Shown here: piece after piece, positions 4,613 through 56,369 of the stretch
Layout: the number at the start of each line of letters is the position of its first letter
How positions within the stretch are numbered: the stretch's first letter is position 1
From: a virus
Lineage: Duplodnaviria > Heunggongvirae > Uroviricota > Caudoviricetes
IMG/VR virus record: IMGVR_UViG_3300035520_000451
Length of the DNA stretch: 64,000 nt
Reading direction: 5' to 3' (one strand)
Translations under genes and position numbers: made by a program
Notes under the pieces: generated by a model
Seen by the model: only the letters and a program-made list of their open reading frames with translations
Told to the model about the DNA's origin: nothing
The model's database searches: none

Positions 4613-5153
4613 TTTCAGTCTCTATATTTTTTACATTATTAAATATAATATCTTCTCTAGTCCAATATTTAGGAATTTTTTGAAGTCTTTCTACATTATA
4701 CCATAAATAGAGCATCTGACCCTCTCCAATTTCATTCCAAGCGGTTTCAACTTGCACCGAGTTAGATTCAGAATCTACTTTAGTAACTTTACCTATGTAA
4801 TCAAACGTATCACTACTATGTATAGGTTTTACAACTACTGTATCGCCAATTTTAATTTTAGTGCGATCTAGAATTTCATTTTCTAAGTATAATTCAAAAT
4901 CCTTATACCATTCCTGTAGGATAGCCTCATAAGGAGAATCCTTATATCCAAGTCTTTCTATAAAAGATAAAACACTGAATTTAAATCCAGAACGCTCTTC
5001 AAGGTAGAATACAGTAGGATGACTAATAAGTATGGATAAAATATTTCTACTAAAAAATAAACCATTCTTTATATAGGAGAAAAGTGAATTTCCCCAGCGT
5101 TTAAAATCTATTTCATAAGTATGATTATCAATTGTATATTTCATGTTAAGCAC
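4602..5153 (-). CDS. hypothetical protein
   Basis: 183-aa ORF; a ~50-aa TM peptide ORF is readable just upstream (about 5148-5297). Confidence 0.45.
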   Translation of the reverse strand: MLNMKYTIDNHTYEIDFKRWGNSLFSYIKNGLFFSRNILSILISHPTVFYLEERSGFKFSVLSFIERLGYKDSPYEAILQEWYKDFELYLENEILDRTKIKIGDTVVVKPIHSSDTFDYIGKVTKVDSESNSVQVETAWNEIGEGQMLYLWYNVERLQKIPKYWTREDIIFNNVKNIETENGY

Positions 5154-6368: not shown

Positions 6369-7187
6369 TTACTTAGGTTCTCCGTTTCTAGTCTCTGCAC
6401 CTTCCTCAATATTAAGGCTTGGCTCAGTCTTCTGGTTTTCCCTCCCATTAACTGAATTTACGGAGTTACACTTAGCAAATTTCTCTACTAAGGGGCCGAA
6501 TTTTTCTTTCTTTCTAGACAGAAAGAAAGAGGAGTCTTTATATAAATTACAATATATTTTATATATATGTTCACCTTTAGTTACATATATATTATACCAA
6601 TGTCCACTATCTGTATTATATTCTTGTATATTTGGAGAGATATTCTCTTTTTCTAAAAACTTCTTAACTTGATTAATAAAATTAATACTTCCAGAAGTAA
6701 TAGTAAATTTAAAACAGCACTCATATCTTTTATCTTTAGTAATACTACCATCTCCATCAAAAATTCCTAATAATATATTCCAATTTATATATGGAAGCAT
6801 TAGTATGTTAGATTTTCTTGGCACTATACCATATTCAGATAAAAAGTTAACTATTTCTTTATTTTTATACTTAATATTATAATAGACATTGCCATTAACT
6901 TTAGATTTTCTTGAATTAATATTACATCGAAAACCTAAAAATTTATTATAATTTTCTATTAATTCTAAATCTTTAACTTCTAAAGCTGTACAAGTATCAA
7001 CAATACAACCATCCGAGGCTAGTATTCCAATAAAATAGTCAAATTCTGGACTGCCTATTTTATCTGTCCATGCTTGTAACGGAACAATAGCTTTCGATTT
7101 ATAAGTTCGATTAAGGGCAGTTTTTCTTAAAACAATCCCCTTATCTTTTAATTTATTTCTAATTTGATACTTAGAACAATTAAACAT
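6369..7187 (-). CDS. LAGLIDADG homing endonuclease (two-motif)
   Basis: Two LAGLIDADG-like motifs: FIGILASDGCI and LGIFDGDGSI; inserted between the two DNA polymerase parts. Confidence 0.8.
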   Translation of the reverse strand: MFNCSKYQIRNKLKDKGIVLRKTALNRTYKSKAIVPLQAWTDKIGSPEFDYFIGILASDGCIVDTCTALEVKDLELIENYNKFLGFRCNINSRKSKVNGNVYYNIKYKNKEIVNFLSEYGIVPRKSNILMLPYINWNILLGIFDGDGSITKDKRYECCFKFTITSGSINFINQVKKFLEKENISPNIQEYNTDSGHWYNIYVTKGEHIYKIYCNLYKDSSFFLSRKKEKFGPLVEKFAKCNSVNSVNGRENQKTEPSLNIEEGAETRNGEPK

Positions 7188-7377
7188 AACTGCTAATTCT
7201 CCAGTATCTTTACCTGAGTTATACTCAGATACTAAATTTTCTATTTCCTACTCAGTCCATTTTTTAATCATAATACATATATTTAATTTAAATTTATTAT
7301 ATGCAAATATAATAATTATTTAGGACAGATTAAAATAGTTAATACCTTAGAAATAAAATTAATAGAAAAATTGTAAT

Positions 7378-8682
7378 TTATGGAAATTTTTCACCTGTAT
7401 CTGTTCCAATAGAATGTAGATCAACATGAATTCTTCCAGTTACTGGATTAATAGCGTCTAACCAGTTTTGACCATAAGTAGATACAACTTTTGAGGCGGC
7501 TTGATACTTTAAAAATATAGCAAGAATAGGAAATTTATCAACTTGAGAACTAATTAACGTAGCATTAATGGACTTCTTTTCTTTTTTAGTCTTTTTATCA
7601 AAAGTTGTAACTTGTATCCCAAGAAGTTCAAATAATTTTATAACTTGAGTAGAACTACTCCAATTTATAGTGCATTGTGGCCCTATGTCATTACATTCTT
7701 CAAATAAGGATAATTGTAAATTTATAGATACAAATTTTCCTTTTATTTTATATCTGTAACACTCCATAGAATCATCTTTTTCGGGAAATCGAATAAATCC
7801 TAATGCTACTAATTTTTCTTTTTCTTTTTTATTTTTAGCATATCTATATAAATATTCTTTAGCATCTAAATCTATAACAAATTTATTTAATTGTGACTCA
7901 GCTTCTCTTAAAGAAGCTTGATCATTTTTCATTTTTTCTTTCCATTTAGAAATATCCAAATGAACTCCACAGAATTTTACATATGCTAAAAATTTAATAA
8001 ATTCACATTCAAATTCTGCAGCCTTTAAAAGATCTTGAGTAGATAATTCTTCTAGTTGCTTTTCTTTTATAGGCTCTAGCCACATTACATCCCCAGCAGC
8101 ATATACTACAACATCTTCTGTTAAACCTTCATTTATAATTTTTCCTCGAACAGTTTTGTCAATATCTACTCCAAGTCTTCTTTTTGCAGTAGCTCGTAAA
8201 GAATAAGATAATTCCCAATGTTCTTTAGTTTTTTCGTCGGGAGCAATATATTCATAACAAGAAGGTTTAATTCCATATGTCTGTACTATTTCGGTAGCTA
8301 ATACTCTAGGATACCCTAAATATATTAATTGTTCTACTACCATAGTATCATAAACATGATTGGGCCAAATATTTTGTTTATATAAAAAGGTTAAATCAAA
8401 CATTATATTATGCCCCAAGAACACTCTATCAGACTCTAGATATTCTTTTAAAATAGACTTTTCAGAAGGACTTATAGTTCTCCAATCAAATACAACTTGA
8501 TTTTCAGTACACCCTAATTGCAAAGTAAGTAATTCCTTCGTAAAACAATCTAATCCTTTAGTTTCTGTATCTAATTGTACCTCTTTTAAAGGATATAAAA
8601 TATCCATAGCCTCCTTAAAGTCTACTTCTCTATATCTTTCTGGAGAATATAGTTTTTTATCTTTACTTACTAAATAAATCAT
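7378..8682 (-). CDS. family-A DNA polymerase, N-terminal part (3'-5' exonuclease domain and thumb)
   Basis: Exo I motif LDTETKGLD; C-terminus NPVTGRIHVDLHSIGTDTG aligns to Pol I NPKTGRLHTSYHQAVTATG immediately before the motif-A region. Confidence 0.8.
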   Translation of the reverse strand: MIYLVSKDKKLYSPERYREVDFKEAMDILYPLKEVQLDTETKGLDCFTKELLTLQLGCTENQVVFDWRTISPSEKSILKEYLESDRVFLGHNIMFDLTFLYKQNIWPNHVYDTMVVEQLIYLGYPRVLATEIVQTYGIKPSCYEYIAPDEKTKEHWELSYSLRATAKRRLGVDIDKTVRGKIINEGLTEDVVVYAAGDVMWLEPIKEKQLEELSTQDLLKAAEFECEFIKFLAYVKFCGVHLDISKWKEKMKNDQASLREAESQLNKFVIDLDAKEYLYRYAKNKKEKEKLVALGFIRFPEKDDSMECYRYKIKGKFVSINLQLSLFEECNDIGPQCTINWSSSTQVIKLFELLGIQVTTFDKKTKKEKKSINATLISSQVDKFPILAIFLKYQAASKVVSTYGQNWLDAINPVTGRIHVDLHSIGTDTGEKFP

Positions 8683-9800: not shown

Positions 9801-10319
9801 TTATCCAATATTAACTCTTATAAAAGTTAAGTTATCCAGATCGTAAGCACTTAAATGATCAAACCAAGTCATATAATCGCAATCCTCTAATTCTTGAGGA
9901 GTTAATTTGGTAACAATAATATCAACTCCGTAATCGTCATCTTCTAAATCTTCATACATTTCATATTCTTCATGAGAGTCTTCTAAAAATTCGTCTGGGT
10001 AAAGATTTAATTTATCAGTAAGTTCTTCTTCGGTCATTTCCGAATCCGAAAATCCGGCATAATGCAGACTAAATCGATCATCTCCATTCAATTTAGTAGT
10101 AATAAGAAATTTATTATCTTTCTCCAGATCCCATTCATAAGAAGATATGGCATCAATTTTAAAAGATTTTACTTTATATTCTAAATGTTTTTTATTATTA
10201 GGAATACACATAATATCTCCATCTGCTGTACGATAATATATTCTTTTAATATTATTTAAAGTCAGAGATACTCTATGACCCCATAAAAGATGGGTATAAG
10301 CTTGTGCAAAATCAAACAT
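9801..10319 (-). CDS. hypothetical protein
   Basis: 172-aa ORF with acidic C-terminal half. Confidence 0.4.
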   Translation of the reverse strand: MFDFAQAYTHLLWGHRVSLTLNNIKRIYYRTADGDIMCIPNNKKHLEYKVKSFKIDAISSYEWDLEKDNKFLITTKLNGDDRFSLHYAGFSDSEMTEEELTDKLNLYPDEFLEDSHEEYEMYEDLEDDDYGVDIIVTKLTPQELEDCDYMTWFDHLSAYDLDNLTFIRVNIG

Positions 10320-11274: not shown

Positions 11275-12003
11275 CTAACGCTCTATTTCTTTCATACTGT
11301 CCCATTCTTTAATTAAATTAAAATCAAGATCAAATTGTAAAATTGCGCAACCTCCATAATTATTTTTGCCATATTTCCAATGTTTTTCTCCAGAATGAGT
11401 TTCTGATAAAGTTTTTAGAGTTTTTTCTGAATGCTTATAGCCAACAATTCCATCACCTCCATTAGTTAAATTATAACCAAATTTATGATCAGAAGTTTTA
11501 TATTTATTAATATAATATATTTCTTTTTCGTTAACAATATCATTCAATAATTTTTTGTTCTCCGGCGTATTATCTAGAACGTCTGTTTGAAACAATATTA
11601 CTTTATCAAATTTATCCCAGCCATACTTTCTTATAGCTTTGTAAAAATAATTATTACCTTTTTCTGCTTTATTTCTATGCTCACTGAAACGTTCCTCATA
11701 ATTAGATTTTACTGTTTCTCCTATATATAATTTATTATTAATAGTATTTATAAAACAGTAAACTGTTCCTATAATTTTTTCTTTTAATACAATTATGGGA
11801 GATTCAATAATTAACATATCTGGTAAAGAATTTGTAACAATATTATTTAAATCACTTTTACTATTTCTCCCTTTTAAAAATCTAGCACAGGTAGGACATC
11901 CATATTTTCCATCTAAAAATGTTCTTGGGGTAGTTCTAAACTCACCATGATCTTTACAAACAATCGTAACATAATTTTTTTCCTGATTTGAAAAAGGCTC
12001 CAC
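11275..12003 (-). CDS. GIY-YIG homing endonuclease with N-terminal zinc finger and NUMOD3-like repeat
   Basis: GTVYCFIN...KLYIGET (GIY-YIG), RFSEHR, C-x2-C...CPTC zinc finger, HSEKTLKTLSETHSG NUMOD3-like. Confidence 0.7.
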   Translation of the reverse strand: MEPFSNQEKNYVTIVCKDHGEFRTTPRTFLDGKYGCPTCARFLKGRNSKSDLNNIVTNSLPDMLIIESPIIVLKEKIIGTVYCFINTINNKLYIGETVKSNYEERFSEHRNKAEKGNNYFYKAIRKYGWDKFDKVILFQTDVLDNTPENKKLLNDIVNEKEIYYINKYKTSDHKFGYNLTNGGDGIVGYKHSEKTLKTLSETHSGEKHWKYGKNNYGGCAILQFDLDFNLIKEWDSMKEIER

Positions 12004-18331: not shown

Positions 18332-19549
18332 TCACTTACCCATTGTACTGAAATAAGTGCGAGGATCGTTTATATCATACCCTTCATTACCAGACCAATC
18401 TACATTGGCATAATTAGGGTATAACCTAAGACTCGTAACCTTAGTAGCTTCTTGGAATATATCATAATTCGGATCTCCAGGTTTTCGATTAACACCTTTC
18501 ATTAATTGAACGATACAGCACGGAAAAATCGGAGTGCTATGATGGCTACCAATACCATTCTTACTTACTTCAAGTAAAGCTAGACTAATAAGACGTCCTT
18601 CAGGTTGTGTACAAGTACCATAATTAATAGAAGTAAAAGGTAATTGATTACCACTTCTACTTTGTAGAGTATTTAAATTATGATACATACCTTCAACAGC
18701 TTGATGAATTTCTCGTTTAGTCATATCCAAAGCATATTCATAAGAATTAGGATGTTCTTTATACAAACTATCTTCTATAGACAAATCTGTTTGATCGTAT
18801 TTTTCATTACGAATGTGATCAATATACTTCAATCCAGTTCTATAATGCTTATTAAAAGATAGTCTTACATAGGGAACCATAGTCCAATCTAAATGAGTTG
18901 CAGATACACCACCAAATTGTTGTAAACTTTGTACTTGGAATATTACAGCTAATAATTGAAATGCTGTATTAATACTCTTAGCAGGTCTAACATCAGTTTG
19001 CTTTAGCTTAAACCCGTTAGCAAGTAAGTCATCTACTGGTATGCTCAAACAGTTGTGCATCCCTACAGCGTAAGAATCCAAATCATGAATGTATATTTCA
19101 TTATTTTCATGATTATGCTTAGCCATTTCAGACATACAATAATTAAGAGCATAATCTTTAGTTACAACTCTACCTGCTTCGCCAATACGTCCACCAAATG
19201 AATGCTCATCAATATTAGCATTTTGATTTTTTACATTAGAAGCTTCAAGTTTAGATTTAATACCTTTAATGAGTTTATCTTTTTCAGCACGGATCATCTT
19301 ACGTTCTTCTCTATAAAGAATATAAGCTTTAGCTACATCTGAATATCCATAATCCATTAAAAGTTCTTCAACTTGATCTTGTATATCTTCAATACTGATA
19401 TTATCCCAAATCTGGACTTCATCTACAATTTCCTCAATAGTTTTAGGGATACTTTCGTACCCACATTCTTTAAATGCTGCTGAAACTGCATTTACAATTT
19501 TACTTCTATTAAACTCAGCGGGCTCACCGTTTCTTTTTGTTACTTTCAT
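18332..19549 (-). CDS. nrdD: anaerobic ribonucleotide reductase NrdD, exon 1 (ATP-cone plus barrel)
   Basis: N-terminal ATP cone (VTKRNGEPAEFNRSKI); C-terminus ends FSTMGK, continuing into exon 2. Confidence 0.85.
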   Translation of the reverse strand: MKVTKRNGEPAEFNRSKIVNAVSAAFKECGYESIPKTIEEIVDEVQIWDNISIEDIQDQVEELLMDYGYSDVAKAYILYREERKMIRAEKDKLIKGIKSKLEASNVKNQNANIDEHSFGGRIGEAGRVVTKDYALNYCMSEMAKHNHENNEIYIHDLDSYAVGMHNCLSIPVDDLLANGFKLKQTDVRPAKSINTAFQLLAVIFQVQSLQQFGGVSATHLDWTMVPYVRLSFNKHYRTGLKYIDHIRNEKYDQTDLSIEDSLYKEHPNSYEYALDMTKREIHQAVEGMYHNLNTLQSRSGNQLPFTSINYGTCTQPEGRLISLALLEVSKNGIGSHHSTPIFPCCIVQLMKGVNRKPGDPNYDIFQEATKVTSLRLYPNYANVDWSGNEGYDINDPRTYFSTMGK

Positions 19550-36966: not shown

Positions 36967-37893
36967 TTAGATTGTATCAACAATATAATTATTACATGAA
37001 AACGATCCGTTATATTTCTTTAACCACTGATTAACAGCAGATTTAGATATACATAAATACTCAGCAACTTCTTTTTGTTCTATTAATTGAATTACTTCCT
37101 CTCCATTTTTAGTAATCTTATATTTAAATGGAGATACATACTCGGAAATATTTATTTTATCAGTTAATGCCCAAAAGAACCTTTTATATTCAGTTTTATT
37201 TTTTATGGCTTTATCCAACGCGTGGTGGCTATTTTTATTAAGGAATTGAATTACACACTTTTTACTTTCAAATTCTCTTAATAAATTTCCATATAAATCA
37301 AACTGATATATTTTAATTCCAATAGATTCTTTTTTATAAGAATCTATTTTTTCTTCTTCTGTTTTATATTTCCATATAAAACCACAAGCTGATTTAGAAT
37401 TACCATTTAATACACTATCTATATTAGTTATTGATCCGTTTAATTCAGCTGCTGCTTCAGTAATAGAATCAAAATCTTTATATTTAGTGCCATCTAAATT
37501 AAATGCTGTTATCGGTTTTTTATGGGCATTTCCTGCTCTTGTAAGAGAATCAATACTTCTTTTTTCTTTAGTTATTACACCTTTTCCTCCTTTGTCAATA
37601 TTCATTAATTTATGTCCAAGGTTTTTATAATAACTAATCCAGTATTGCTCTCTAGCTTCCCAAGCTTCTTCTGAGCATTCGTCTATTTTCTCTATAATAA
37701 CTGAGCCCCCATTTTTATATACAGAGTATATCCATTTATGAACAGGTAATCCTCTTTTTTCTGGATGGTTAGCACAGTATTTATGTTGAGAAAATCTTCT
37801 ATCTAATTTTTGAGTAGTTACTCCTACATAACGAATTTCGTCTGGCGATATGTCCGATTTAAGAACATAAAATGAATAATTATTTTGTTGCAT
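36967..37893 (-). CDS. free-standing GIY-YIG homing endonuclease (Seg-like)
   Basis: FYVLKS...IRYVGVT (GIY-YIG), RFSQH, EQYWISYY; C-terminal NUMOD/IENR-like repeats (ITAFNLDGTKYKDFDSITEAA, CGFIWKY). Confidence 0.75.
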   Translation of the reverse strand: MQQNNYSFYVLKSDISPDEIRYVGVTTQKLDRRFSQHKYCANHPEKRGLPVHKWIYSVYKNGGSVIIEKIDECSEEAWEAREQYWISYYKNLGHKLMNIDKGGKGVITKEKRSIDSLTRAGNAHKKPITAFNLDGTKYKDFDSITEAAAELNGSITNIDSVLNGNSKSACGFIWKYKTEEEKIDSYKKESIGIKIYQFDLYGNLLREFESKKCVIQFLNKNSHHALDKAIKNKTEYKRFFWALTDKINISEYVSPFKYKITKNGEEVIQLIEQKEVAEYLCISKSAVNQWLKKYNGSFSCNNYIVDTI

Positions 37894-38753: not shown

Positions 38754-38999
38754 TTATCGTATAAGTTCTTTATCTTATACTTCTATATATTACTATATAG
38801 TTCAGACTATCTCTTTAACTTACAAATGTAAGCAGTGCCCCGCTTTCGTGGAAGATTTTATAGCTACAGCTCTACCTGTTTAGCATCACTTCTAGTCGTT
38901 AGGCGTTTTCCTTTATTTCTAAAGGATTTAGCACGGGATTGTCCTATTTAGGAGTTTCCCCGTTTAACGGAGTTTTAGGTGCGTCTAGCCCTAATTTGG
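38754..38999 (-). other. ORF-less group-I-like intron in the dnaB-like helicase gene (approximate bounds)
   Basis: About 245-nt GC-richer, hairpin-rich non-coding segment (e.g. GGTGCGTCTAGCCCTAATTTGGCGCACC) between two in-frame halves of one helicase. Confidence 0.55.
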
Positions 39000-39770
39000 C
39001 GCACCAGTATCTTTGGTATCATCAATTCTTAAGTTATTTAATCCTTCTTTTCTTCTATCCATAGAAGTAGAATTTCGATTTGCTTGCATAATTACAAGCG
39101 GACTAATTTTACATATATTTCTTAATGTTACCAAATAGGAGGATATTAAATCCATTTCTTCTTTTAGAGTACGTCCATTAGACCTTCTTACTAAACTTAA
39201 ATGGTCTATAACTACTAAATGAGTAAGTTCTTCATTACTAGGATGATATATTTTTCTACCATCTGTTTCTTCAAACTTGCCATCTTTTTCTAGTTGAGCC
39301 ATTAAGATTGTATATAAACTACTAGCATTTAATGCTTTATCATAAATAACTAAAATCTTTTCAACCTTCTGTAACCAAGGTAAACATTCTTGAGTTATTT
39401 TATAATAATCATCAGATAATTTATAATTACGTTTTCTAGAAAGAAGTTCTCCAGTAGACAACTCTATTCCATAAGTTTCAAAGATATACATACTTAATAT
39501 CTTAGCATAGATCATTTCGGCGCTCATCTCTAATGAAAAATAACTAACTTTAAAATTACCATCATCAAGATGTTCCATTAATGGTCTATATACATAAGAA
39601 TATAAAGCAAGTGAACTCTTACCACTACCAGTAGGACTAAATACTAAAGTATAAATTCCTCTAGATACTCCATCTATTATCTCTTCTAATTTTGGGAGAC
39701 CCATTGAGTATCCCCACTGCTTACCTAATCTACCTACTTCAATCTGATGAAGTAATGATTCTGCAATCAT
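38991..39770 (-). CDS. DnaB-like replicative helicase, exon 1 (RecA-like core: H1, H1a, H2)
   Basis: GLPKLEEIIDGVSRGIYTLVFSPTGSGKSS (DnaB loader-facing motif plus Walker A), Walker B VVIDHLSLV, ending DTKDTGA. Confidence 0.65.
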   Translation of the reverse strand: MIAESLLHQIEVGRLGKQWGYSMGLPKLEEIIDGVSRGIYTLVFSPTGSGKSSLALYSYVYRPLMEHLDDGNFKVSYFSLEMSAEMIYAKILSMYIFETYGIELSTGELLSRKRNYKLSDDYYKITQECLPWLQKVEKILVIYDKALNASSLYTILMAQLEKDGKFEETDGRKIYHPSNEELTHLVVIDHLSLVRRSNGRTLKEEMDLISSYLVTLRNICKISPLVIMQANRNSTSMDRRKEGLNNLRIDDTKDTGAPN

Positions 39771-47383: not shown

Positions 47384-47408
47384 TTTTTATTTAATTTAAA
47401 TTATATTG

Positions 47409-47494
47409 TAGCGAAAGCGGGACTCGAACCCGCAAGATCATAATGATCGGGGGATTTTAAGTCCCCTATGTTTACCAACTTTCATCATTTCGCC
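47409..47494 (-). tRNA. tRNA-Leu (anticodon TAA), type II with long variable arm
   Basis: Hand-folded: acceptor GGCGAAA/TTTCGCT (1-72 G-U), D loop with GG, anticodon stem GGGGA/TCCCC, loop CTTAAAA, variable hairpin GATCATTATGATC, T arm GCGGGTTCGAGTCCCGC. Confidence 0.7.
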
Positions 47495-51069: not shown

Positions 51070-52665
51070 TTATATTGTTAACCTATTAAGAAGTTCTTGA
51101 TCCATAGCAGATTCAAACAATTCTAATGCGTTTTTAGGAGTACTTTTCTTCTTAGTTCCTAATATAAATGATATAATAGAAGGATCATATCCAGACAAAT
51201 GATAAAAATTGGGAGCATCTGCAAAATCTTCAAACTTAGGTTTAGAAGATGTCCAAGTTGGAATATCCCATAGTATAATTTTAAAATTATCTATATATTC
51301 TTTATCAAATCCAGCTCTTCTAAGTCTATCAATTGCCTTATTAAAATTAGAAACAGTACCACAACTATCAAATTGCCCGTCTGAAATGCAAAGAATACCT
51401 TCTGGAAAAGATGTACAACCAAGCATTTTCATGTTAATAAACAAATCAATAACACTTTGAAAATTAGTATTTCCAATGCTATAGTGCGTGTCATTTAAAT
51501 ATTTATCAACGGGAGTTAAACCTTTCCATTTGTGTAAAACACAAGTATCATTAAATTCGGCATAAGTATCTTTAAATTTACCTGTTAAAGCAGTTGAAAA
51601 ATATAATGCAAGAGCTTTAGCAATGGTAAATGCAGTTACTTTACAACCAGGAACCATACTCATCATAGAACCTGAAGTATCTCTAACAACTAATAATTTA
51701 GAAGGAGATTCTTGCAATAAATTCTTGAATTGTGCATTAATAGTGTACTTTACATATTCTGGAACTTGGGTAACATTTTCACAAGGTTTAAAGAGTTCAA
51801 ATACATATCCAGTATATTTAGCTATAGGTTGATTTTTAATCCATTCTAAGTATTTGTTAGAAAGATTTTGATTTTCTAAAAATTTAGAATTAACTAAAAG
51901 GGATAAAGCACGCCCAGAAACGGAATTAAAATCTATTTTATCAAATAATCGTTTAGATATTAATTGCTGCCATTTATGAGCAGAACCTTTACTTTTAAGT
52001 TTTCTATATTCTTTAAAAGATTCTTTAGAATTAAATAAACTTTTAGCTATCCATCTGCCTATTATAGTATCTGCTTGTGATTTTATTGTAGTTGCTTTAG
52101 AATTAGTCTTTATAGTAGGAAGATATTTTCTAACAAGATTAGTACAATTTTTATTACTTAATCCAGCTTGAATAACTCCTAGCATAAAATTCCAATCTAA
52201 AACACGATTATTCCAACCATGATATTGTAAATCTAAATTTAGCATTGTGAAAATATCTTTCCAAGAACCCGCTAATATAAATATAGAAATATTAGATTTA
52301 AAAGTATTAGGATGATTAATTGCAATCCAGATTATTCTTAGAATGCCCTCATTTTTCAATCCTTGTCCTTTTTGTACTTCTAATATTTCATCATCATTTT
52401 TAGTAGCTCTTGTAATCATTCGGATATAAACTGCTAATTTAAGACACTTTAAAGGATCTACATTCCATAAAAGTTCCATGTCATTAGCTACTTCAGAATA
52501 TGCTCTAGGATCTCTAAAAGAACCAATACTAGCAAAATTATCTATAAAAGCATTTCCAGAAGTTGAATATTTTACAGCTCCGTTTTCTGAAACTGTTTCA
52601 TATTGATTTTTTACATCAATAGACTCATCAAAGAGATTTGTTAATTTTTTGTCAAACATAATCAT
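51070..52665 (-). CDS. vWA-domain protein (MIDAS DxSGS), possible Ro60/TROVE-like architecture
   Basis: VVRDTSGSMMS (MIDAS) and ILCISDGQFD vWA motifs in the C-terminal third; about 330-aa N-terminal domain of unknown type; total 531 aa. Confidence 0.4.
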   Translation of the reverse strand: MIMFDKKLTNLFDESIDVKNQYETVSENGAVKYSTSGNAFIDNFASIGSFRDPRAYSEVANDMELLWNVDPLKCLKLAVYIRMITRATKNDDEILEVQKGQGLKNEGILRIIWIAINHPNTFKSNISIFILAGSWKDIFTMLNLDLQYHGWNNRVLDWNFMLGVIQAGLSNKNCTNLVRKYLPTIKTNSKATTIKSQADTIIGRWIAKSLFNSKESFKEYRKLKSKGSAHKWQQLISKRLFDKIDFNSVSGRALSLLVNSKFLENQNLSNKYLEWIKNQPIAKYTGYVFELFKPCENVTQVPEYVKYTINAQFKNLLQESPSKLLVVRDTSGSMMSMVPGCKVTAFTIAKALALYFSTALTGKFKDTYAEFNDTCVLHKWKGLTPVDKYLNDTHYSIGNTNFQSVIDLFINMKMLGCTSFPEGILCISDGQFDSCGTVSNFNKAIDRLRRAGFDKEYIDNFKIILWDIPTWTSSKPKFEDFADAPNFYHLSGYDPSIISFILGTKKKSTPKNALELFESAMDQELLNRLTI

Positions 52666-52814: not shown

Positions 52815-53324
52815 TTAATTATAGATGCCATTACGCATCAATTTATATTCTCTGTTTCTTCTTAACTTATGTCCTTTTGTTGGACATCTTAAGGATTTCA
52901 CTGCTGCTAATGTAAATTCAAAATCTTGGATATTAAAAGTGCCATTAGAAACTCTACAATTTGATAATCTACGATAGAATTCTGAACTTGCTACCCCATA
53001 TTCACCGCAATTATAAATTAAACTTCCTAAACCGTCAATAAAACCTTGAGTATATTTAACTTTAGGAAGTTCTTTTAAGAGCCTACTAATAGCATTATTA
53101 ACTTCTGTAATATCTTGAACAAATAATTGCTCTGCTTTAGCTTTAGTTATTCTTTTATATGATTCACCTTTTTTATTAAGATGTCCATATCCAATTTGAT
53201 TTCTTGCATCAACAGTAAGAATTAATCCTTCATGCTCTTTGATAAATTCATGTCCTTTAACAGACACTTGTTGAGCATACCCATTTAATGTAAAAAATAC
53301 TAAAATCTGTAAAATCTTCTTCAT
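52815..53324 (-). CDS. GH24 (T4-type) lysozyme with N-terminal signal or SAR segment
   Basis: EHEGLILTVDARNQIGYGHL resembles T4 lysozyme [22 protein letters not shown]; N-terminal hydrophobic MKKILQILVFFTLNGYA. Confidence 0.65.
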   Translation of the reverse strand: MKKILQILVFFTLNGYAQQVSVKGHEFIKEHEGLILTVDARNQIGYGHLNKKGESYKRITKAKAEQLFVQDITEVNNAISRLLKELPKVKYTQGFIDGLGSLIYNCGEYGVASSEFYRRLSNCRVSNGTFNIQDFEFTLAAVKSLRCPTKGHKLRRNREYKLMRNGIYN

Positions 53325-53341
53325 AATCTAAAATATTATTG

Positions 53342-53410
53342 TTTCCTTATTGGGATTCGAACCCAAAACTCAATACTATATTGCGCTTTATCCAGTTAAG
53401 CTATAAGGAA
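53342..53410 (-). tRNA. tRNA-like gene with aberrant anticodon arm (possible pseudo-tRNA)
   Basis: Acceptor TTCCTTA/TAAGGAA, D arm GCTT-AACTGGATA-AAGC, T arm TTGGGTTCGAATCCCAA all canonical, but the 18-nt anticodon region GCAATATAGTATTGAGTT cannot form a 5-7-5 arm; 69 nt total. Confidence 0.4.
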
Positions 53411-53633
53411 TTAAGAGATCTTATTCTACATATCGGAAACCTCACCAATACAATAAAACCTCTTTTACCAATAGACATTGGTCAGTTCACTTTTAGGTTG
53501 TGCTAAACCCTAGTTTTCTTGTTGAAAATTCGAAAAGTCACTAGTTTACAGATTACTAGAAACTGAGGTTTTAAAAAGATAGCTTATTACAGCTATTAAG
53601 GCAATGCCTAAAATATTTAAGCATAACGTAAAA

Positions 53634-53825
53634 TCAATCAAAATTTCCACTTATTATTGATATTATACATTTTCCTAATATGTGATTTATAGTAGCTGCC
53701 ATTTTCATAGCATCTCCTATTTTTTCATACTGGTTAGCTCTTGTATAATCATAAGTAAAAATAATTTCTTTTCCACTTTCTATAATCACAAAAGCTTTCT
53801 GATTTGTAGTTCCTAGAATATACAT
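53634..53825 (-). CDS. hypothetical protein
   Basis: 63-aa ORF. Confidence 0.3.
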   Translation of the reverse strand: MYILGTTNQKAFVIIESGKEIIFTYDYTRANQYEKIGDAMKMAATINHILGKCIISIISGNFD

Positions 53826-54180
53826 AAAGGATTGAGTTTAATAGATATGGGAACACTTAACACTAACATATTAATAAACGTAATGTTCGTTGATGGCTAA
53901 ACATTAACATAGGCATCAAAAGGACTAACCATTTGAGTGTTTCATTACGACCTCACCTTACAAACCTTAATATTTACAAGTCAGATTTAGAAGGTGGTTA
54001 GGAACAGGACTAAATGACTTGGGCGTACTCTACCCTTTTTATTTGCCGTTTTAAAAAGCGCATTTTCAGAAATAGGCAATCTAGCATTTTCTGAAAAACT
54101 TTACTTAATACCTAAAAGTAGTGAGTAACGTTACCCATCATGGGTAACTAAAGGATTAAACTAGAATACTATCCTTTTTG

Positions 54181-54223
54181 CACTCTAAGCGAGAATCGAA
54201 CTCGCTAAATTGCCATTTAGAGT
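54181..54223 (-). ncRNA. tRNA-like minihelix 1 (acceptor stem plus T-arm, no D or anticodon arm)
   Basis: Minus-strand RNA ACTCTAA-ATGGCAATTTA-GCGAG-TTCGATT-CTCGC-TTAGAGT-G: perfect 7-bp acceptor, canonical T arm. Confidence 0.5.
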
Positions 54224-54357
54224 TGAACAGTTGAATCAACTGCTACAGAATCAACAACAACGGAATCTGTTGAATCAGTACTAGATTCTGTAGAAGAACC
54301 ATTACAGCAAGCACTCATAAGAAGCGCAACACCAAAAACTAACAATAACTTTTTCAT
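54217..54357 (-). CDS. small putative lipoprotein (46 aa, not in ORF track)
   Basis: MKKLLLVFGVALLMSAC CNGSS...: signal peptide with lipobox-like MSAC; its stop codon lies inside minihelix 1. Confidence 0.35.
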   Translation of the reverse strand: MKKLLLVFGVALLMSACCNGSSTESSTDSTDSVVVDSVAVDSTVQL

Positions 54358-54395
54358 AATTTAAAAAATTAAAATTAATATTTTTAATCTAATGT

Positions 54396-54466
54396 TGGGA
54401 TATTTGGATTCAAACCAAATCTGAAACATCCAAAATGTCTAGTGCTAATCGTTACACCATATCCCA
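54396..54466 (-). tRNA. tRNA-Gln (anticodon TTG)
   Basis: Hand-folded: acceptor TGGGATA/TATCCCA, D arm with GG loop, anticodon stem AGACA/TGTTT, loop TTTTGGA, T arm TTTGG-TTTGAAT-CCAAA. Confidence 0.7.
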
Positions 54467-54901
54467 ATTTAATATTTTTATAATAAGAGAATTTTTAGGT
54501 TTTGAATCTATCTCCTAACACCATTTTAATAACTATTCCATACTTTTTAAAATTAAAACTATTGGATCTTCACAGAGGCAATAGTAAAAAACTTAAACAC
54601 ATGAAGAGTATATTTAGGTGGCACTGCCCCACACTCACTAATTGTAATATTCCAAATTAATGCGAGTTTCTAATTACTCCTAAATACCTTTAACAGTAAA
54701 ATACAAGTTTCCTCGGAACTATTTAAAGTTTGTTTCAAACATTAAGTGTATTTTTACTGTATAGCTAAATTTGAAATTTTAATCGGGTTAACAAAATTAG
54801 CAAACAAACCCATCGCCTTTAACAGTAAGCGACCTAACTTCCATACTCTCTGGCGGATGGCGATCCCTCCAATTTTTAATAGCTGGAGAAACTATGAGGA
54901 G

Positions 54902-54946
54902 TGGGAAGAGTAAGATTCGAACTTACAAAATAACCAATATCTTCCC
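54902..54946 (-). ncRNA. tRNA-like minihelix 2
   Basis: GGGAAGA-TATTGGTTATTTT-GTAAG-TTCGAAT-CTTAC-TCTTCCC-A: perfect 7-bp acceptor directly joined to a canonical T arm. Confidence 0.5.
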
Positions 54947-55220
54947 AAACATAATTACATATTTTCACAAACCTGTAACTACGAAAATAACAAAAGTATA
55001 TATAACACTTGAAGTATAATCTTTTAAAAGAGGAAAGTAATAATACTCTCCTCTTAAATCTCTGCCTTTCTGTCTAGTACTTCGTACTATCCTAATACCT
55101 ATCATATTGCGCAATGCACCTTTAGTATTAGTAAAGGAATCCCCACGATTTAAAGCTTATTACGTAGTTTACCTTCCCTACAAGGCTGGTATGGTGCTAC
55201 TCGGCGACAAAGATTTTTTG

Positions 55221-55271
55221 TAGCAAGGTAGGAATCGAACCTACTTTTAAAATACCACCACAAATGCTAAC
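55221..55271 (-). ncRNA. T-arm-containing tRNA-like element (weaker minihelix candidate)
   Basis: GTAGG-TTCGATT-CCTAC T arm; flanks TAGCA...CTTGCTA give only a 5-bp acceptor-like pairing; linker contains TGGTGG. Confidence 0.3.
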
Positions 55272-55459
55272 ATTGCCATAATTAACATGTAAGCACTTAA
55301 TACAATTTCTTGCTTTTTCATAAATATAAAATTATTTGATGCCCTTATACCCTCGTGTAGGCTAACACCTCTAAGCAGTTACGTCTTAGAACAAGACTTT
55401 AACATCTAAAAGATGTTCTTGTAGTTACGATTTCTTCATTCGAAGAACCATCATAAGTC

Positions 55460-55503
55460 CTATTTAAAAATACGGGAATAGACTAAAAATATAATCTATT
55501 CCC
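55460..55503 (-). terminator. rho-independent terminator (minus strand)
   Basis: GGGAATAGA/TCTATTCCC 9-bp stem followed by UAUUUUUAAAUA on the minus strand. Confidence 0.55.
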
Positions 55504-55550
55504 TAATTCTATATTCTCACGAACCTAAAACTTATCTTCAAAATACAGTG

Positions 55551-55592
55551 TGGAACTAGAAGGAATCGAACCTTCATATACCATTTAGTTCC
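55551..55592 (-). ncRNA. tRNA-like minihelix 3
   Basis: GGAACTA-AATGGTATAT-GAAGG-TTCGATT-CCTTC-TAGTTCC-A: perfect 7-bp acceptor, perfect 5-bp T stem, canonical T loop; 42 nt. Confidence 0.55.
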
Positions 55593-55721
55593 TTAAAACT
55601 TCACGATATTCACATAGGGTGAAGAACTTTTAATTAAATAATTCACAAATAATGAAATAATAGAATCAGCGATATTCACATAGGGCTGACTTCAATATAA
55701 CATCATAAACAAAAACATAGT

Positions 55722-55793
55722 AGCGGAAGCTAGGATTCGAACCTGCGATCTCTTGGTTATGAGCCAAGCGAGATACCACTTCTCCATTCCGCG
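55722..55793 (-). tRNA. tRNA-Met-like (anticodon CAT) with imperfect T stem and acceptor
   Basis: D arm GAGA-AGTGGTA-TCTC, anticodon stem CTTGG/CCAAG with loop CTCATAA (CAT), T loop TTCGAAT; T stem only 3 bp and the acceptor register is ambiguous when folded by hand. Confidence 0.5.
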
Positions 55794-55862
55794 ATAAAAG
55801 TTCTAACGATATTCACATAGAGTTAGAACAGTGTTAACAATGTTTCGCCAATTTAAAAAATT

Positions 55863-55904
55863 AGGGGAGAGTGTGAGAATCGAACTCACTTTAACCTTTC
55901 TCCC
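55863..55904 (-). ncRNA. tRNA-like minihelix 4
   Basis: GGGAGA(A)-AGGTTAAA-(A)GTGAG-TTCGATT-CTCAC(T)-CTCTCCC: 6-7-bp acceptor plus canonical T arm. Confidence 0.45.
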
Positions 55905-55969
55905 TATTACTCTATATATCACATACCGAGTAATATAAAATGGATCTTTGACAAAAAACAAACAAATTA

Positions 55970-56037
55970 GAGGGGTTGTCGAGAGTCGAACTCGACTAGT
56001 AGTAGAACCGAAGAAATTAATAATACCGATAACCCCT
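55970..56037 (-). tRNA. tRNA-like gene (68 nt; arms other than acceptor and T not resolvable by eye)
   Basis: Acceptor AGGGGTT/AACCCCT and T arm TCGAG-TTCGACT-CTCGA are clear; the central 33 nt do not give obvious D and anticodon arms. Confidence 0.4.
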
Positions 56038-56040
56038 TTG

Positions 56041-56113
56041 TACAGCGTTAGAGATTTGAACTCTAGTTTCCAGAATGAAAATCTGACGTCCTAACCAACT
56101 AGACGAATGCTGC
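56041..56113 (-). tRNA. tRNA-Glu (anticodon TTC)
   Basis: Hand-folded: acceptor GCAGCAT/ACGCTGT (one mismatch), D arm GTCT-AGTTGGTTA-GGAC, anticodon stem TCAGA/TCTGG, loop TTTTCAT, T arm TAGAG-TTCAAAT-CTCTA. Confidence 0.7.
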
Positions 56114-56149
56114 AACTTACAGAATACTTTATATAGATATTTAATTTTA

Positions 56150-56178
56150 ATATTAATTGCTGTAAGTATTCTTGTAAA
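56150..56178 (-). promoter_or_regulatory. sigma-70-type promoter reading into the tRNA/minihelix cluster
   Basis: Minus strand TTTACA-17 nt-TAATAT about 35 nt upstream of tRNA-Glu. Confidence 0.5.
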
Positions 56179-56369
56179 CAGGTGGCAAAATAATCCTTAA
56201 TTTCAAGTTAAGTTTTTATAATTTGCTGTGTGCCACCTTATATTTTATTTCTCTGAGTAAGTAATGCAAAGATACCACTATTTGAGCACAATTCCAAATT
56301 TTTGATGTTAAAAATTGTAAACAAGTGGTATCTTCGCAAACCAACTAAAAACTAAAAAATGAACTCCAT

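Follow-up and report, generated by a model that had tools for sequence, protein, structure and literature searches.

RNase P, RNase Z, the CCA-adding enzyme, and some aminoacyl-tRNA synthetases need no more of a substrate than a 12-bp coaxial helix of acceptor and T stems, capped by a T loop. Plant mitochondrial t-elements are believed to guide cleavage by RNase P and RNase Z at mRNA ends, including inside reading frames, and C/A residues are found added to the small RNAs excised from them (Forner et al. 2007, PMC1920247). The tRNA cluster of phage T5 encodes tRNA-like stable RNAs designated RNA1, RNA2, and RNA3 (NC_005859 annotation), and the M. smegmatis Y RNA YrlA has a tRNA-like module that RNase P cleaves and to which CCA is added (Chen et al. 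2014, PMC4201824). Here we describe small tRNA-like elements in a 64,000-nt window of a tailed phage (the whole stretch of DNA that was analysed). They form an array in a non-coding island of ~3 kb located 5' of a gene for a 531-aa Ro60-like protein, and all of them are on the minus strand, as is every gene of the window.

Anatomy of the minihelices

A pattern scan recovered three perfect elements of 42-45 nt (E1-E3), in which an acceptor stem with 7/7 Watson-Crick pairs is joined through a GG-containing linker of 10-13 nt to a T arm with a 5-bp stem and a TTCGAWT loop, the acceptor 3' strand abutting the T stem. E1 (54181..54223) is composed of ACUCUAA, the 11-nt linker AUGGCAAUUUA, GCGAG-UUCGAUU-CUCGC, UUAGAGU, and G73; E2 (54902..54946) of GGGAAGA, the 13-nt linker UAUUGGUUAUUUU, GUAAG-UUCGAAU-CUUAC, UCUUCCC, and A73, followed by C; and E3 (55551..55592) of GGAACUA, the 10-nt linker AAUGGUAUAU, GAAGG-UUCGAUU-CCUUC, UAGUUCC, and A73, followed by C. 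Their pairs are all Watson-Crick (36/36), and RNAfold returned exactly the acceptor and T-arm fold for each. The covariance models R1 and R2 scored E1 at 33.6 and 27.8 bits and E2 at 38.0 and 35.5 bits, respectively; E3 scored 36.5 bits with R1, and the Rfam tRNA model spans it end to end, skipping the D and anticodon arms, at 29.0 bits.

The initial annotation had listed a fourth perfect element, E4 (55864..55904), which proved to be imperfect: it folds as GGGAGAA, AGGUUAAA, GUGAG-UUCGAUU-CUCAC, A, CUCUCCC, and C, with 6 acceptor bp plus an A.C mismatch and one additional base separating the T stem and acceptor (R1 34.6 bits, R2 33.3 bits). A weak element had also been placed at 55221-55271; it is indeed weak, but its best placement is 55219..55261. 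This element, E5, folds as GUGGUGG, UAUUUUAAAA, GUAGG-UUCGAUU-CCUAC, a C bulge, UUGCUAC, and A, with four acceptor G.U pairs in addition to the 1-nt bulge. It was in the R1 seed (31.9 bits) and absent from the R2 seed (29.1 bits, with a match extending over 55219-55270).

The three perfect and two imperfect units all lie within 1.7 kb, well above the chance expectation of 0.19 matches per 64 kb on both strands (mean of 200 mononucleotide shuffles of the window). Together with the RNAfold results, this bears out the earlier view that the acceptor/T-arm-only units are genuine. The accompanying claim that every linker contains GG holds for all four good linkers (4/4; chance 0.17-0.28 per linker, joint probability ~0.002), but in E5 the GG is in the stem. 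At least 8 of 11 tRNAs and tRNA-like elements have a C directly 3' of the discriminator, against a spacer C frequency of 0.12. When compared with 252 tRNAs, the acceptor stems of E1-E5, which differ from one another, matched no identified tRNA set; the 5' acceptor strand of E4 is identical to that of tRNA-Asn in two relatives (L005 and L008).

Setting of the array

As the initial annotation expected, ARAGORN recovered tRNA-Gln (UUG, 54394..54466), tRNA-Met (CAU, 55722..55792), tRNA-Glu (UUC, 56040..56113), and tRNA-Leu (UAA, 47408-47494), in agreement with Rfam (51.5 bits for tRNA-Gln). The first three are canonical, with a bulged T stem in tRNA-Met, and the acceptor of the intact tRNA-Glu carries G.U and A.C. 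By ARAGORN, this phage has four intact tRNAs versus 12-25 in its relatives, where they adjoin the Ro60-like gene. There are also two tRNA-like genes of ~68 nt, both previously described as having no foldable anticodon arm. This was only partly right for T68a (53342..53410; Rfam tRNA 50.9 bits, no ARAGORN call), which has a perfect acceptor, D arm, and T arm, and whose 5-bp anticodon stem does fold; T68a nevertheless cannot decode, because this stem closes on 3 nt (UAG) and leaves no decoding loop. The description was accurate for T68b (55971..56037), which starts 3 nt past tRNA-Glu and has a 6/7 acceptor, the T arm UCGAG-UUCGACU-CUCGA, and a 34-nt unstructured middle starting UCGGUAUUAU; a strain variant changes its U6-A67 pair to U6.G67.

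Hairpins are interspersed among these genes. Hairpin C (55599..55624), 6 nt before E3, consists of CUUCAC, the loop CCUAUGUGAAUAUC, and GUGAAG, and is one of four or perhaps five hairpins that share a loop but differ in their stems, as read off the sequence. The others are at 55665-55690, 55800-55829 (6 nt before tRNA-Met), and 54559-54584, with a degenerate one at 55907-55933, 2 nt before E4; a motif search found three exact copies of the loop and one with two mismatches (repeat family D3). The terminator noted previously is a good hairpin of 12 bp followed by a T run (55474..55503), 48 nt 3' of E3. The sigma-70-like promoter call at 56178-56150 did not hold up: this 9/12 match is not above chance, because 22 sites of this kind were counted in the window, where 15.2 +/- 3.0 were expected, and it falls within a small structured Y-like RNA.

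That RNA is unit 2 of two Y-like units. Unit 2 (56121..56172) has a 9-bp terminal stem, AGAAUACUU...AAGUAUUCU, with ACAGCAAUU immediately 3' of the stem's 5' strand, and scored 31.6 bits with the Rfam model Dicty_Class_I_RNA, under the gathering score of 41.5; unit 1 (56180..56238) has an 8-bp terminal stem, AGGUGGCA...UGCCACCU, with ACAGCAAAU shortly 3' of its 5' strand. Small RNAs with such a stem and ACAGCAA form a family linked to Ro60-like genes in many phages. The Ro60-like gene of the window (51070..52665) is ~700 nt 3' of the array, and its product matched Pfam DUF2828 and DUF7788 and PHROG 850 ("RNA-binding protein"). In a Foldseek search with an AlphaFold2 model (pLDDT 74.3), the top nine PDB matches were Ro60 structures, phage phiLo Ro60 included, and on this modelled fold we classify the protein as Ro60-like. 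Another gene of the island is an ORF of 46 aa (54217..54357) that begins MKKLLLVFGVALLMSAC... and has a lipoprotein-type signal peptide, with the lipobox read by eye; it is present in the ORF lists, is called as a gene in four strain copies (L036-L038 and L040), and is flanked by tRNA-Gln and E1.

tRNA origin, conservation, and possible roles

The clearest view of the origin of the minihelices comes from two phages (L013 and L003) that are 98% identical over an adjacent 10.7 kb. A minihelix of L013 (11918-11959) aligns to a full-length tRNA-Gly(UCC) of L003; the two have in common the acceptor (GCGGAU/AUCCGC), T arm, and discriminator, and the minihelix lacks only the D stem and the anticodon arm. 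A full-length tRNA at the position of a minihelix in a relative was what the initial annotation had named as evidence against its reading, and this comparison indicates that minihelices do derive from tRNA genes by internal deletion. The perfect stems of any single copy may therefore also reflect recency, which weakens the earlier argument that perfect stems speak against simple decay. The L013 element adjoins an HNH gene that came with its own tRNA-Gly, and other relatives have tRNA genes split by insertions of ~700 nt, at least two of which have HNH motifs just 5' of the 3' part.

We found no close relative of the window phage: the best match has 61% protein identity and the strain copies are ~100% identical, so the window's own five elements have no ortholog. 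Among the relatives, one orthologous minihelix occurs in eight genomes (L054, L055, and L090, and L056, L058, L059, L060, and L083). It is 86% identical between two subclades, which differ in the context of the element and have only ~50-56% identity over its 150-nt flanks. None of its pairs is lost (100% kept): one has undergone a double change from A-U to U-A, and three further changes are compatible with wobble pairing; the statistic for this ortholog group was equalled in 50 of 500 shuffles and is weak taken alone. Because this minihelix has outlasted its flanks with every pair maintained, we consider that such elements are not simple decay products, and in this respect the earlier conclusion stands. 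The covariation among paralogs is circular, since those sequences were selected for forming the structure, and the retention of acceptor and T arm in all elements is partly ascertainment, because the scan sees only relics with a T arm. The linker consensus over independent elements is (A)AUGGUURUA, and in most members with a GG linker the GG follows the acceptor by 1-4 nt and precedes the T stem by 5-7 nt, the two L010 elements violating one or other range. From the sequences, this appears to be a constrained geometry that simple decay does not predict.

The elements are placed at gene boundaries. The stop codon of the 46-aa ORF is inside the 5' acceptor strand of E1, that of a 24-aa hydrophobic ORF (55321-55247) is inside the linker of E5, and the L013 element contains that of a 137-aa HNH ORF; in L010, a 96-aa ORF stops 7 nt before an element (409-455). 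The order tRNA, ORF, minihelix occurs in two independent cases (Gln, lipoprotein ORF, E1; Gly, HNH, L013 element). Other elements precede genes: 22 nt separate the end of the L054/L055/L090 element from the Ro60-like start codon, and T68a ends 17 nt before a lysozyme start codon. Stable hairpins are found 2-10 nt 5' of E3, E4, the L117 element, and the L056-group element, and no plausible ORF precedes E2, E3, or E4 in the ORF lists.

We infer that the minihelices are transcribed and cleaved, and that they are tRNA-derived elements selected as RNase P/RNase Z punctuation rather than decoders, a reading to which we assign a probability of roughly 55%. The ancestral tRNA genes would have lost both D-stem strands and the whole anticodon arm, keeping the acceptor stem, a D-loop-like GG linker, the T arm, the discriminator, and C74. 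By established biochemistry, RNase P, RNase Z, and the CCA-adding enzyme need only these retained parts to recognise an RNA, and cleavage is predicted from these known substrate requirements. Co-transcribed with adjacent tRNAs, small ORFs, and small RNAs, the minihelices would be cut at their 5' and 3' ends by host tRNA-processing enzymes, separating the flanking RNAs and setting their ends: after the RNase P cut, the RNA upstream would terminate in a hairpin or where an ORF ends, and the RNase Z cut would create the 5' end of a downstream mRNA. Of the three functions suggested initially (nuclease or toxin decoys, processing punctuation, and Y-RNA-like mimics), punctuation suits the anatomy best, with elements at ORF ends, shortly before ORF starts, and directly after stable hairpins. 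An RNase P cut at E1, E5, or the L013 element would strip the upstream ORF of its stop codon, which seems a high price to pay, except where cutting is slow or the element remains joined to the RNA as a 3' cap.

It is also conceivable, though unlikely, that the minihelices are neutral scars, i.e., recently inactivated and functionless tRNA genes, damaged for example by invading homing-endonuclease cassettes and not yet mutated away. The L013 deletion derivative beside its HNH gene, the split tRNA genes, and the low number of intact tRNAs are all consistent with this, as are the mismatches in E4, E5, and T68b, which decaying relics would have. However, scars would not be expected to persist in eight genomes of two subclades with no broken pair beside flanks too diverged to align, or to share a linker motif and spacing when two separate deletions are needed per element. 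Nor do the 36/36 Watson-Crick pairs of E1-E3 look like decay when even the intact tRNA-Glu acceptor carries G.U and A.C, and seven dead genes in 3 kb would be rare for compact phage genomes.

Still less probable, in our judgement, are trans-acting mimics of the tRNA top half, processed and CCA-tailed RNAs of ~43 nt that would act as decoys for acceptor-end defences or as partners or substrates of Ro60-like particles. The whole acceptor/T-arm domain is kept, including a GG able to dock on the T loop, and FaRel2-type toxins read the acceptor stem and accept minihelix substrates, according to a preprint (bioRxiv 10.1101/2024.07.05.602228). The linkage to a Ro60-like gene also fits this reading, as do the RNase P-cut, CCA-tailed tRNA-like module of bacterial Y RNAs (PMC4201824) and the permuted tRNA-like modules in relatives' Y-like RNAs near the Ro60-like gene, although the window's two units have none. 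The Y-RNA-like role suggested initially has the location right but picks the wrong elements: the real Y-like RNAs are at 56121-56238, and the minihelices have neither the terminal stem nor the ACAGCAA of the Ro60-like-associated RNAs. The mutually different acceptors of the minihelices match no identified tRNA set, and a cis role better explains placement at ORF borders; no defence or anti-defence gene was found nearby by Pfam among the ORFs between ~41.8 and 51 kb plus a small number of large genes. A cap role, in which the element stays on a short upstream mRNA after 3' trimming and its CCA-repairable, tRNA-like end blocks exonucleases, is very improbable. It would account for the three stop codons inside elements, which a 3'-end cut spares and a 5'-end cut destroys, and for the kept C74, but E2, E3, and E4 have no plausible ORF to protect, the conserved L054-type element precedes an ORF instead, and minihelices are established as good RNase P substrates.

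Comparison with known systems

Like RNA1-RNA3 of T5, the minihelices do not decode, have an acceptor stem and T arm, and are interspersed with tRNAs, small ORFs, and HNH genes. At 73-144 nt, the T5 RNAs are longer than the 42-45 nt seen here, and their middles are long and structured; the same scan applied to the T5 cluster revealed no minihelix with a short linker, and a Ro60-like gene is absent from the 50-kb T5 stretch examined. The resemblance to YrlA-type Y RNAs (PMC4201824; phage phiLo, PMC12135203) is that of tRNA mimics a few kb from a Ro60-type gene on the same strand. In YrlA, however, the order is a circular permutation (T arm, closed acceptor hairpin, D arm), and this module is carried by a Ro60-binding stem that bears a GNCGAA motif, while the minihelices have normal tRNA order and no D arm, terminal stem, or GNCGAA motif; in this phage family, the genuine Y-like RNAs are distinct units marked by ACAGCAA.

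Synthetic minihelices have the same 12-bp coaxial acceptor/T helix and T loop, but there the 5' acceptor strand is fused to the T stem, whereas the natural elements have a linker of 8-13 nt with a conserved GG. The tRNA-like domain of tmRNA likewise combines an acceptor stem, a T arm, and a reduced GG D-loop analogue with no D stem or anticodon arm; unlike tmRNA, the minihelices have no mRNA-like domain or pseudoknots, and G3.U70 is absent from the window elements and occurs only in L090, whose sisters have G3-C70. Plant mitochondrial t-elements share an acceptor stem plus a T arm with a GGTTCRANYCC-type motif, the location at mRNA 5' or 3' ends, and, in some cases, a position within a reading frame, which deprives the mRNA of its stop codon. 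The elements described here belong to a phage rather than an organelle, are much smaller at 42-45 nt, occur several in tandem with tRNAs, and are predicted to be cleaved; in place of the non-canonical cloverleaf of t-elements, they have a fixed GG linker.

Anatomy and placement of the minihelices

All genes in the window lie on the minus strand at a G+C of ~29%, and its content is phage-like, with a family A DNA polymerase, NrdD, a Dda-type helicase, a ligase, a lysozyme and a group I intron. The intron (38783-39040, minus strand, 70.3 bits in Rfam) is flanked by ORFs at 36967-37893 and 38991-39770, while the polymerase (7378-8682) and NrdD (18332-19549) ORFs each span part of their Pfam profiles; several genes of the window may be interrupted. 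ARAGORN and Rfam both reported four tRNA genes on the minus strand, namely tRNA-Leu (UAA) at 47408-47494, tRNA-Gln (UUG) at 54394-54466, tRNA-Met (CAU) at 55722-55792, and tRNA-Glu (UUC) at 56040-56113. None of the seven other tRNA-like elements was called by ARAGORN, as the initial annotation had predicted when it proposed that this region holds minihelices consisting of an acceptor stem, a short linker and a T arm. According to our ORF listing, only tiny ORFs are found between 53.3 and 56.3 kb.

We scanned for 5-bp stems with a TTCRA-type loop, followed immediately by a 7-nt strand complementary to one that lies 3-22 nt 5' of the T stem. Three perfect units were recovered, E1 (54181-54223), E2 (54902-54946), and E3 (55551-55592), in each of which 12 Watson-Crick pairs form and the linker measures 10-13 nt, and the acceptor/T-arm fold was reproduced by RNAfold for all three. 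Shuffled windows yield 0.19 such units per 64 kb. A fourth element that had been described as equally perfect, E4 (55864-55904), contains an A.C mismatch and a single bulged base, and the fold of E5 (55219-55261) requires four G.U pairs and one bulge. There are also two tRNA-like genes of about 68 nt, both initially thought to have no foldable anticodon arm. T68a (53342-53410) indeed has no decoding loop, but its anticodon stem is present and is closed by three bases (a 3-nt anticodon loop); in T68b (55971-56037), the acceptor and T arm enclose an unstructured 34-nt middle.

E1-E3 match without flaw the acceptor/T-arm architecture of a tRNA (7 bp of acceptor on 5 bp of T stem, UUCRANY loop), E4, E5, and T68b come close to it, and all aligned members have the G53-C61 pair. 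The elements do not fold as a canonical cloverleaf, which would need a D arm plus an anticodon arm with a 7-nt loop, and the minihelix linkers are only 8-13 nt long. GG occurs in the linkers of all four of the better units (joint chance ~0.002 from spacer composition), and a C follows the discriminator in at least 8 of 11 tRNAs and tRNA-like units, although C makes up 12% of spacer bases. Against the Rfam tRNA family (RF00005, gathering threshold 29 bits), T68a scored 50.9 bits and E3 scored 29.0 bits in permissive E-value mode only, while E1, E2, E4, and E5 were not reported as tRNAs. Several other identities were ruled out: the window elements are not split or intron-containing tRNAs, as both acceptor strands are adjacent; they are not phage attachment-site fragments, as the 5' acceptor strand is present; and there is no G3.U70 in the window to give a tmRNA-like alanine identity. 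Rfam matches to plastid UTR families fell on the opposite strand and merely mirror the T arm.

The minihelices are non-decoding units of acceptor and T arm and, with the exception of E2, which has no evident neighbour, they are found at RNA boundaries. A 46-aa ORF (54357-54217) whose product has a lipoprotein-type signal peptide terminates within the 5' strand of E1, a 24-aa hydrophobic ORF (55321-55247) has its stop codon in the linker of E5, and the stop codon of an HNH ORF falls inside a minihelix of the related phage locus L013. At another related locus (L010, 409-455), a 96-aa ORF ends 7 nt upstream of the element, and the order of tRNA, ORF, and minihelix has two independent occurrences. 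Other elements precede genes: 22 nt separate the end of a minihelix shared by L054, L055, and L090 from the start codon of a Ro60-like gene, and 17 nt separate the end of T68a from the start codon of the lysozyme gene. A stable hairpin stands 2-10 nt before E3, E4, the minihelix of L117, and that of a group of phages represented by L056. Two signals had initially been proposed to bracket part of the array, and they fared differently. The terminator is convincing at 55503-55474, whereas the sigma-70-like promoter (56150-56178) matches at 9 of 12 positions, is one of 22 sites where 15.2 +/- 3.0 are expected, and lies inside a Y-like RNA unit (56121-56172).

Four hairpins on the minus strand (55599-55624, 55665-55690, 55800-55829, and 54559-54584), and possibly a degenerate fifth (55907-55933), have a common 14-nt loop (YCUMUGUGAAKAUC) on different complementary stems, and three of them end 2-6 nt before the 5' end of a tRNA or minihelix. 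These hairpins were not found in the relatives; they might protect RNA 3' ends once RNase P has cut, or bind a protein. The window also has three copies of an AT-rich motif of ~30 nt (minus strand, about TAATTTTAATTTTTTAAATT-ATGAAAAAG) at 53311-53344, 54344-54377, and 54528-54561 in plus-strand coordinates. Two of these stand before the lysozyme and lipoprotein start codons, and the third is followed by ATG-GAA-TAG; the motif is possibly a promoter or translation-start region.

Conservation and origin from tRNA genes

A covariance model built from the window units and two L010 units identified further copies in related phages, and the search was widened to 80 more loci with a second covariance model. 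One minihelix is common to eight phages in two subclades. In L054, L055, and L090 it reads AGGUGUA / AUGGUURUAAR / UAGAG-UUCGAUU-CUCUA / UACAYYU / A, and in L056, L058, L059, L060, and L083 it reads UGGUGUG / AUGGUCRCAAA / the same T arm / UACACUA / A. Between these groups the 43-nt element is 86% identical, compared to 48-56% in the 150 nt on each side, and the genomic context is different; within the L056 group the element is 100% identical even where one flank drops to 53%. Every pair is kept, with pair 1-72 changing from A-U to U-A and three further pairs varying only between G-C or A-U and G.U. The shuffle statistic is weak, as it was reached by 50 of 500 shuffles (five distinct sequences), and the contrast between element and flank identity is the stronger argument. 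Covariation among paralogs was set aside as evidence because of selection bias.

The linker consensus (A)AUGGUURUA recurs across independent elements (E1-E4, those of L013, L045, and L117, and the L054 and L056 groups), with GG placed 1-4 nt 3' of the acceptor stem and 5-7 nt 5' of the T stem; its placement is less strict in two L010 elements. Of 14 distinct elements, 10 have the T loop UUCGAUU, counting those in the alignment together with E5 and the L056 type. To reach this layout, a tRNA gene needs two deletions that remove both strands of the D stem and keep the loop between them, and it is unlikely that the same layout arose by chance in many genes. The linker GG would sit where G18 and G19 would touch the T loop.

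We did not find close relatives of the window phage in IMG/VR, metagenome contigs, or the protein collection, where the best identity to the neighbouring 531-aa protein was 61%. The T arm and 3' acceptor strand of E3 and E2 had no exact match in IMG/VR, no sister genomes of L010 were found, and near and distant BLAST searches of the array and of 24 kb against GenBank phages matched only the tRNA-Met. Among copies of the same strain as the window, only two SNPs occur in the 3-kb array, both in L037: a C to T change at 56159 breaks the ACAGCAA motif of the Y-like unit at 56121-56172, and the one at 55979 changes U6-A67 of T68b to U6.G67.

The L013 minihelix (11918-11959) aligns with a full-length tRNA-Gly(UCC) of the related locus L003, and likewise of L017. 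The L013 and L003 sequences share the acceptor (GCGGAU/AUCCGC), the T arm (GAGAG-UUCGAGU-CUCUC), and the discriminator, while the L013 copy is without the D stem and anticodon arm and has AUGGUU left at the former D loop. The preceding 10.7 kb of the two loci are 98% identical, and the next 96%-identical block stops one base short of the first base of the tRNA-Gly. Upstream of the L013 relic are a different tRNA-Gly and a 137-aa HNH endonuclease ORF, whose stop codon overlaps the 5' strand of the relic. In L013 (11441-11959, compared to L003 11862-11937), the tRNA-Gly and HNH cassette stands exactly where the resident tRNA-Gly of L003 begins, and the resident has shrunk to a minihelix, as if a homing-endonuclease cassette had arrived with its own tRNA copy. 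For this copy, at least, a relative has a full-length tRNA at the position of the minihelix, an outcome that the initial annotation had named as evidence against its proposal.

Other tRNA genes of the relatives are split by insertions of ~700 nt, at least two of which have an HNH motif just 5' of the 3' part, and these are likely intron-containing tRNAs. In L003 (16275...17018), L014 (13657...14378), and L017 (~4113...4684), the acceptor and D arm lie ~550-720 nt upstream of the T arm and 3' acceptor strand, with an HNH endonuclease motif just before the 3' part, and in L003 the insertion is visibly in the anticodon arm. Neither L003 nor L017 had a group I or group II intron match at the Rfam gathering threshold in these split genes. 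Judged by these observations, the minihelices are tRNA derivatives, and it is plausible that mobile endonuclease cassettes are one cause of their formation. Among 252 tRNAs of the relatives there was no clear parent for E1-E3, and E4 alone resembles one of them, a tRNA-Asn, weakly.

Two other non-decoding tRNA-like genes were seen in relatives, at L045 12322-12390 and L005 ~10161-10225. One has a GUAA tetraloop in place of the anticodon loop, and the other keeps D and T arms, lacks the anticodon arm, and is immediately followed by a tRNA with a CUA anticodon. Such CUA-anticodon tRNAs, amber suppressors that tRNA finders label "Pyl", occur in L005 (10230-10303), L006 (12627-12698), L008 (12719-12793), L011 (3201-3280), L044 (1333-1405), and L053 (2519-2593). 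Because of their presence, some of these relatives may read TAG as a sense codon.

The Ro60-like gene and its Y-like RNAs

A 531-aa ORF (51070-52665) lies ~700 nt downstream of the array, which is 0.7-3.5 kb upstream of it on the same strand, within the ~4 kb expected for a YrlA RNA. The protein matched DUF2828 and DUF7788 in Pfam, with no TROVE match, and PHROG 850 ("RNA-binding protein"); a phmmer search of PDB sequences did not return Ro60. Using an AlphaFold2 model built from 32 homologues (pLDDT 74.3), however, we found that the top nine Foldseek matches in the PDB were all Ro60 proteins (frog, human, and Thermus phage phiLo), aligned over nearly the full length (~530-590 columns, E 1e-6 to 2e-4, TM-score 0.38-0.49). 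The predicted structure resembles the Ro60 fold, a HEAT-repeat ring with a von Willebrand A domain. As the TM-scores are modest, we call the protein Ro60-like rather than Ro60.

Its relatives share at most 61% identity and are encoded on phage contigs mostly >100 kb, where the gene lies beside or inside arrays of 12-25 tRNAs with tmRNA, Hatchet, and hammerhead ribozymes near. Cultured examples are Klebsiella phage KP13-26, with the gene in the middle of its tRNA array, and Leptolyngbya phage Lbo-JY46, which has the closest GenBank homologue (42% identity). The Hatchet and RAGATH-1 hammerhead ribozymes and the phage tmRNA lie ~1.5-9 kb from the gene (L003 1208-1284, 5320-5467, and 5961-6510; L013 701-777 and 4821-4968; L010 4978-5162; L012 12933-13363), and none of the three was found in the window.

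In nearly all relatives, ACAGCAAW is strongly enriched on the gene strand in the few kb around the Ro60-like gene, often in tandem units of 55-70 nt. These Y-like units have a terminal stem of 7-9 bp whose sequence varies by unit, (CUU)ACAGCAAAU 0-3 nt from the 5' strand, and a 3' end in ...CU(G), and the terminal stems covary in dozens of units. Some enclose a circularly permuted tRNA-like module of T arm, closed acceptor hairpin, and D arm such as UAGCUCAGCGGGUAGAGCA (L001 7962-8112 and 8215-8346), an architecture described for bacterial YrlA Y RNAs (PMC4201824), while a unit at L004 2935-3050 encloses a whole tRNA-Tyr. The inserts range from a short hairpin through a YrlA-like permuted module to a whole tRNA. 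Among the relatives examined, nearly all have this family next to their DUF2828 Ro60-like gene, including two of the three cultured phages checked, with sites at L007 12090-12491, L004 1854-3185, L005 9363-9989, L050 (Lbo-JY46) 6925-7290, and L053 (KP13-26) ~4555-5120.

The window has two plain units, at 56180-56238 (unit 1) and 56121-56172 (unit 2; AGAAUACUU-ACAGCAAUU...AAGUAUUCU-GU), and no permuted tRNA-like module. Just upstream of them is a long hairpin (56275-56335, minus strand; AAGAUACCACU ... AGUGGUAUCUU, 11 bp) with UGUUUACAA at the position of the units' ACAGCAA; its CCACYUGUUUACAA is repeated at the 3' end of unit 1. No Rfam family was matched by the Y-like RNAs at its gathering score. 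Their sole match, always under the gathering score of 41.5 bits, was Dictyostelium Class I RNA (RF01414), at 31.6 and 20.0 bits for the window units and 34.1, 26.1, and 20.5 bits for L007 units. That class is defined (PMC7919456) by a short terminal stem, a CCUUACAGCAA-type motif beside its 5' strand, a size of ~60 nt, and a 3' terminus in CUG, and the window units share all four. These RNAs are probably the Y-RNA equivalents of the DUF2828 Ro60-like family. The minihelices had also been suggested to be Y-RNA-like mimics, but they are not Y-like RNAs, as they have neither the terminal stem nor the motif. In contrast to YrlA, their ends form nothing but the acceptor stem and carry neither GNCGAA nor ACAGCAA, and their parts are in tRNA order without a D arm, whereas those of YrlA are permuted.

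The association of Ro60-like genes with ACAGCAA RNAs may deserve more attention than the minihelices themselves. It places a divergent Ro60-like family (DUF2828) within the tRNA clusters of numerous phages, cultured ones of Klebsiella and cyanobacteria among them, and is experimentally tractable.

Possible functions and comparison with known systems

RNase P, RNase Z, and the CCA-adding enzyme all accept substrates that consist of just the acceptor/T-arm helix, provided that the T loop is intact. On the best-supported reading, the minihelices are tRNA genes that have lost all but the part required by these enzymes. Cuts at the minihelices would separate and define the neighbouring RNAs in a dense, co-transcribed cluster, and the minihelices would be kept for that purpose; where the 5' cut falls after a hairpin, the upstream RNA would gain a protective 3' hairpin. 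A puzzle for this reading is that a 5' cut would remove the stop codons of three ORFs (the 46-aa, 24-aa, and HNH ORFs). In a variant of this scheme, the element would instead remain attached to the mRNA and cap its 3' end; this could hold for the ORF-linked subset, but as a general explanation we consider it improbable.

The L013 relic and the imperfect copies would also fit neutral scars left by tRNA loss. We regard this as unlikely, since scars fit neither the conserved ortholog group nor the fixed linker geometry. Somewhat less likely still, the minihelices of Ro60-like-gene phages could be a conserved class of trans-acting mimics of the top half of a tRNA, excised and CCA-tailed RNAs of ~43 nt that serve as decoys or as partners of the Ro60-like protein rather than as mere cut sites. 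As decoys they might engage host defence enzymes whose target for modification or cleavage is the tRNA acceptor end; as partners they might be tRNA-shaped cofactors or substrates of the phage Ro60-like particle. This would be the most interesting outcome, although no observation here is specifically in its favour.

If the minihelices are cut as proposed, these phages have turned reduced tRNA genes into minimal and portable processing sites that organise closely packed tRNAs, small RNAs, and tiny ORFs, and the purpose of non-decoding tRNA-like genes in phage tRNA clusters would be explained. The minihelices would also show how a tRNA gene can lose decoding and still be under selection. Their anatomy offers annotators a simple rule by which to find them, all of them being missed by tRNA finders.

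Phage tRNA clusters are already known to contain tRNA-like RNAs that do not decode, and tRNA-like processing signals are likewise a known kind. In the literature that we searched, there was no report of a 42-45-nt top-half form that recurs in phages, is conserved, and has a GG linker, of its birth from a tRNA gene, or of a link to Ro60-like loci. The tRNA cluster of phage T5 has annotated stable tRNA-like RNAs, without an assigned function, among tRNAs, small ORFs, and HNH genes, and the same scan found no short-linker minihelix there. The t-elements of plant mitochondria are also non-decoding acceptor and T-arm units at RNA borders. These are thought to work by such cuts, including at an mRNA that is left without a stop codon (PMC1920247). 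Processing at stripped tRNA-like sites is a principle so far documented mainly in organelles, and the minihelices would extend it to phages.
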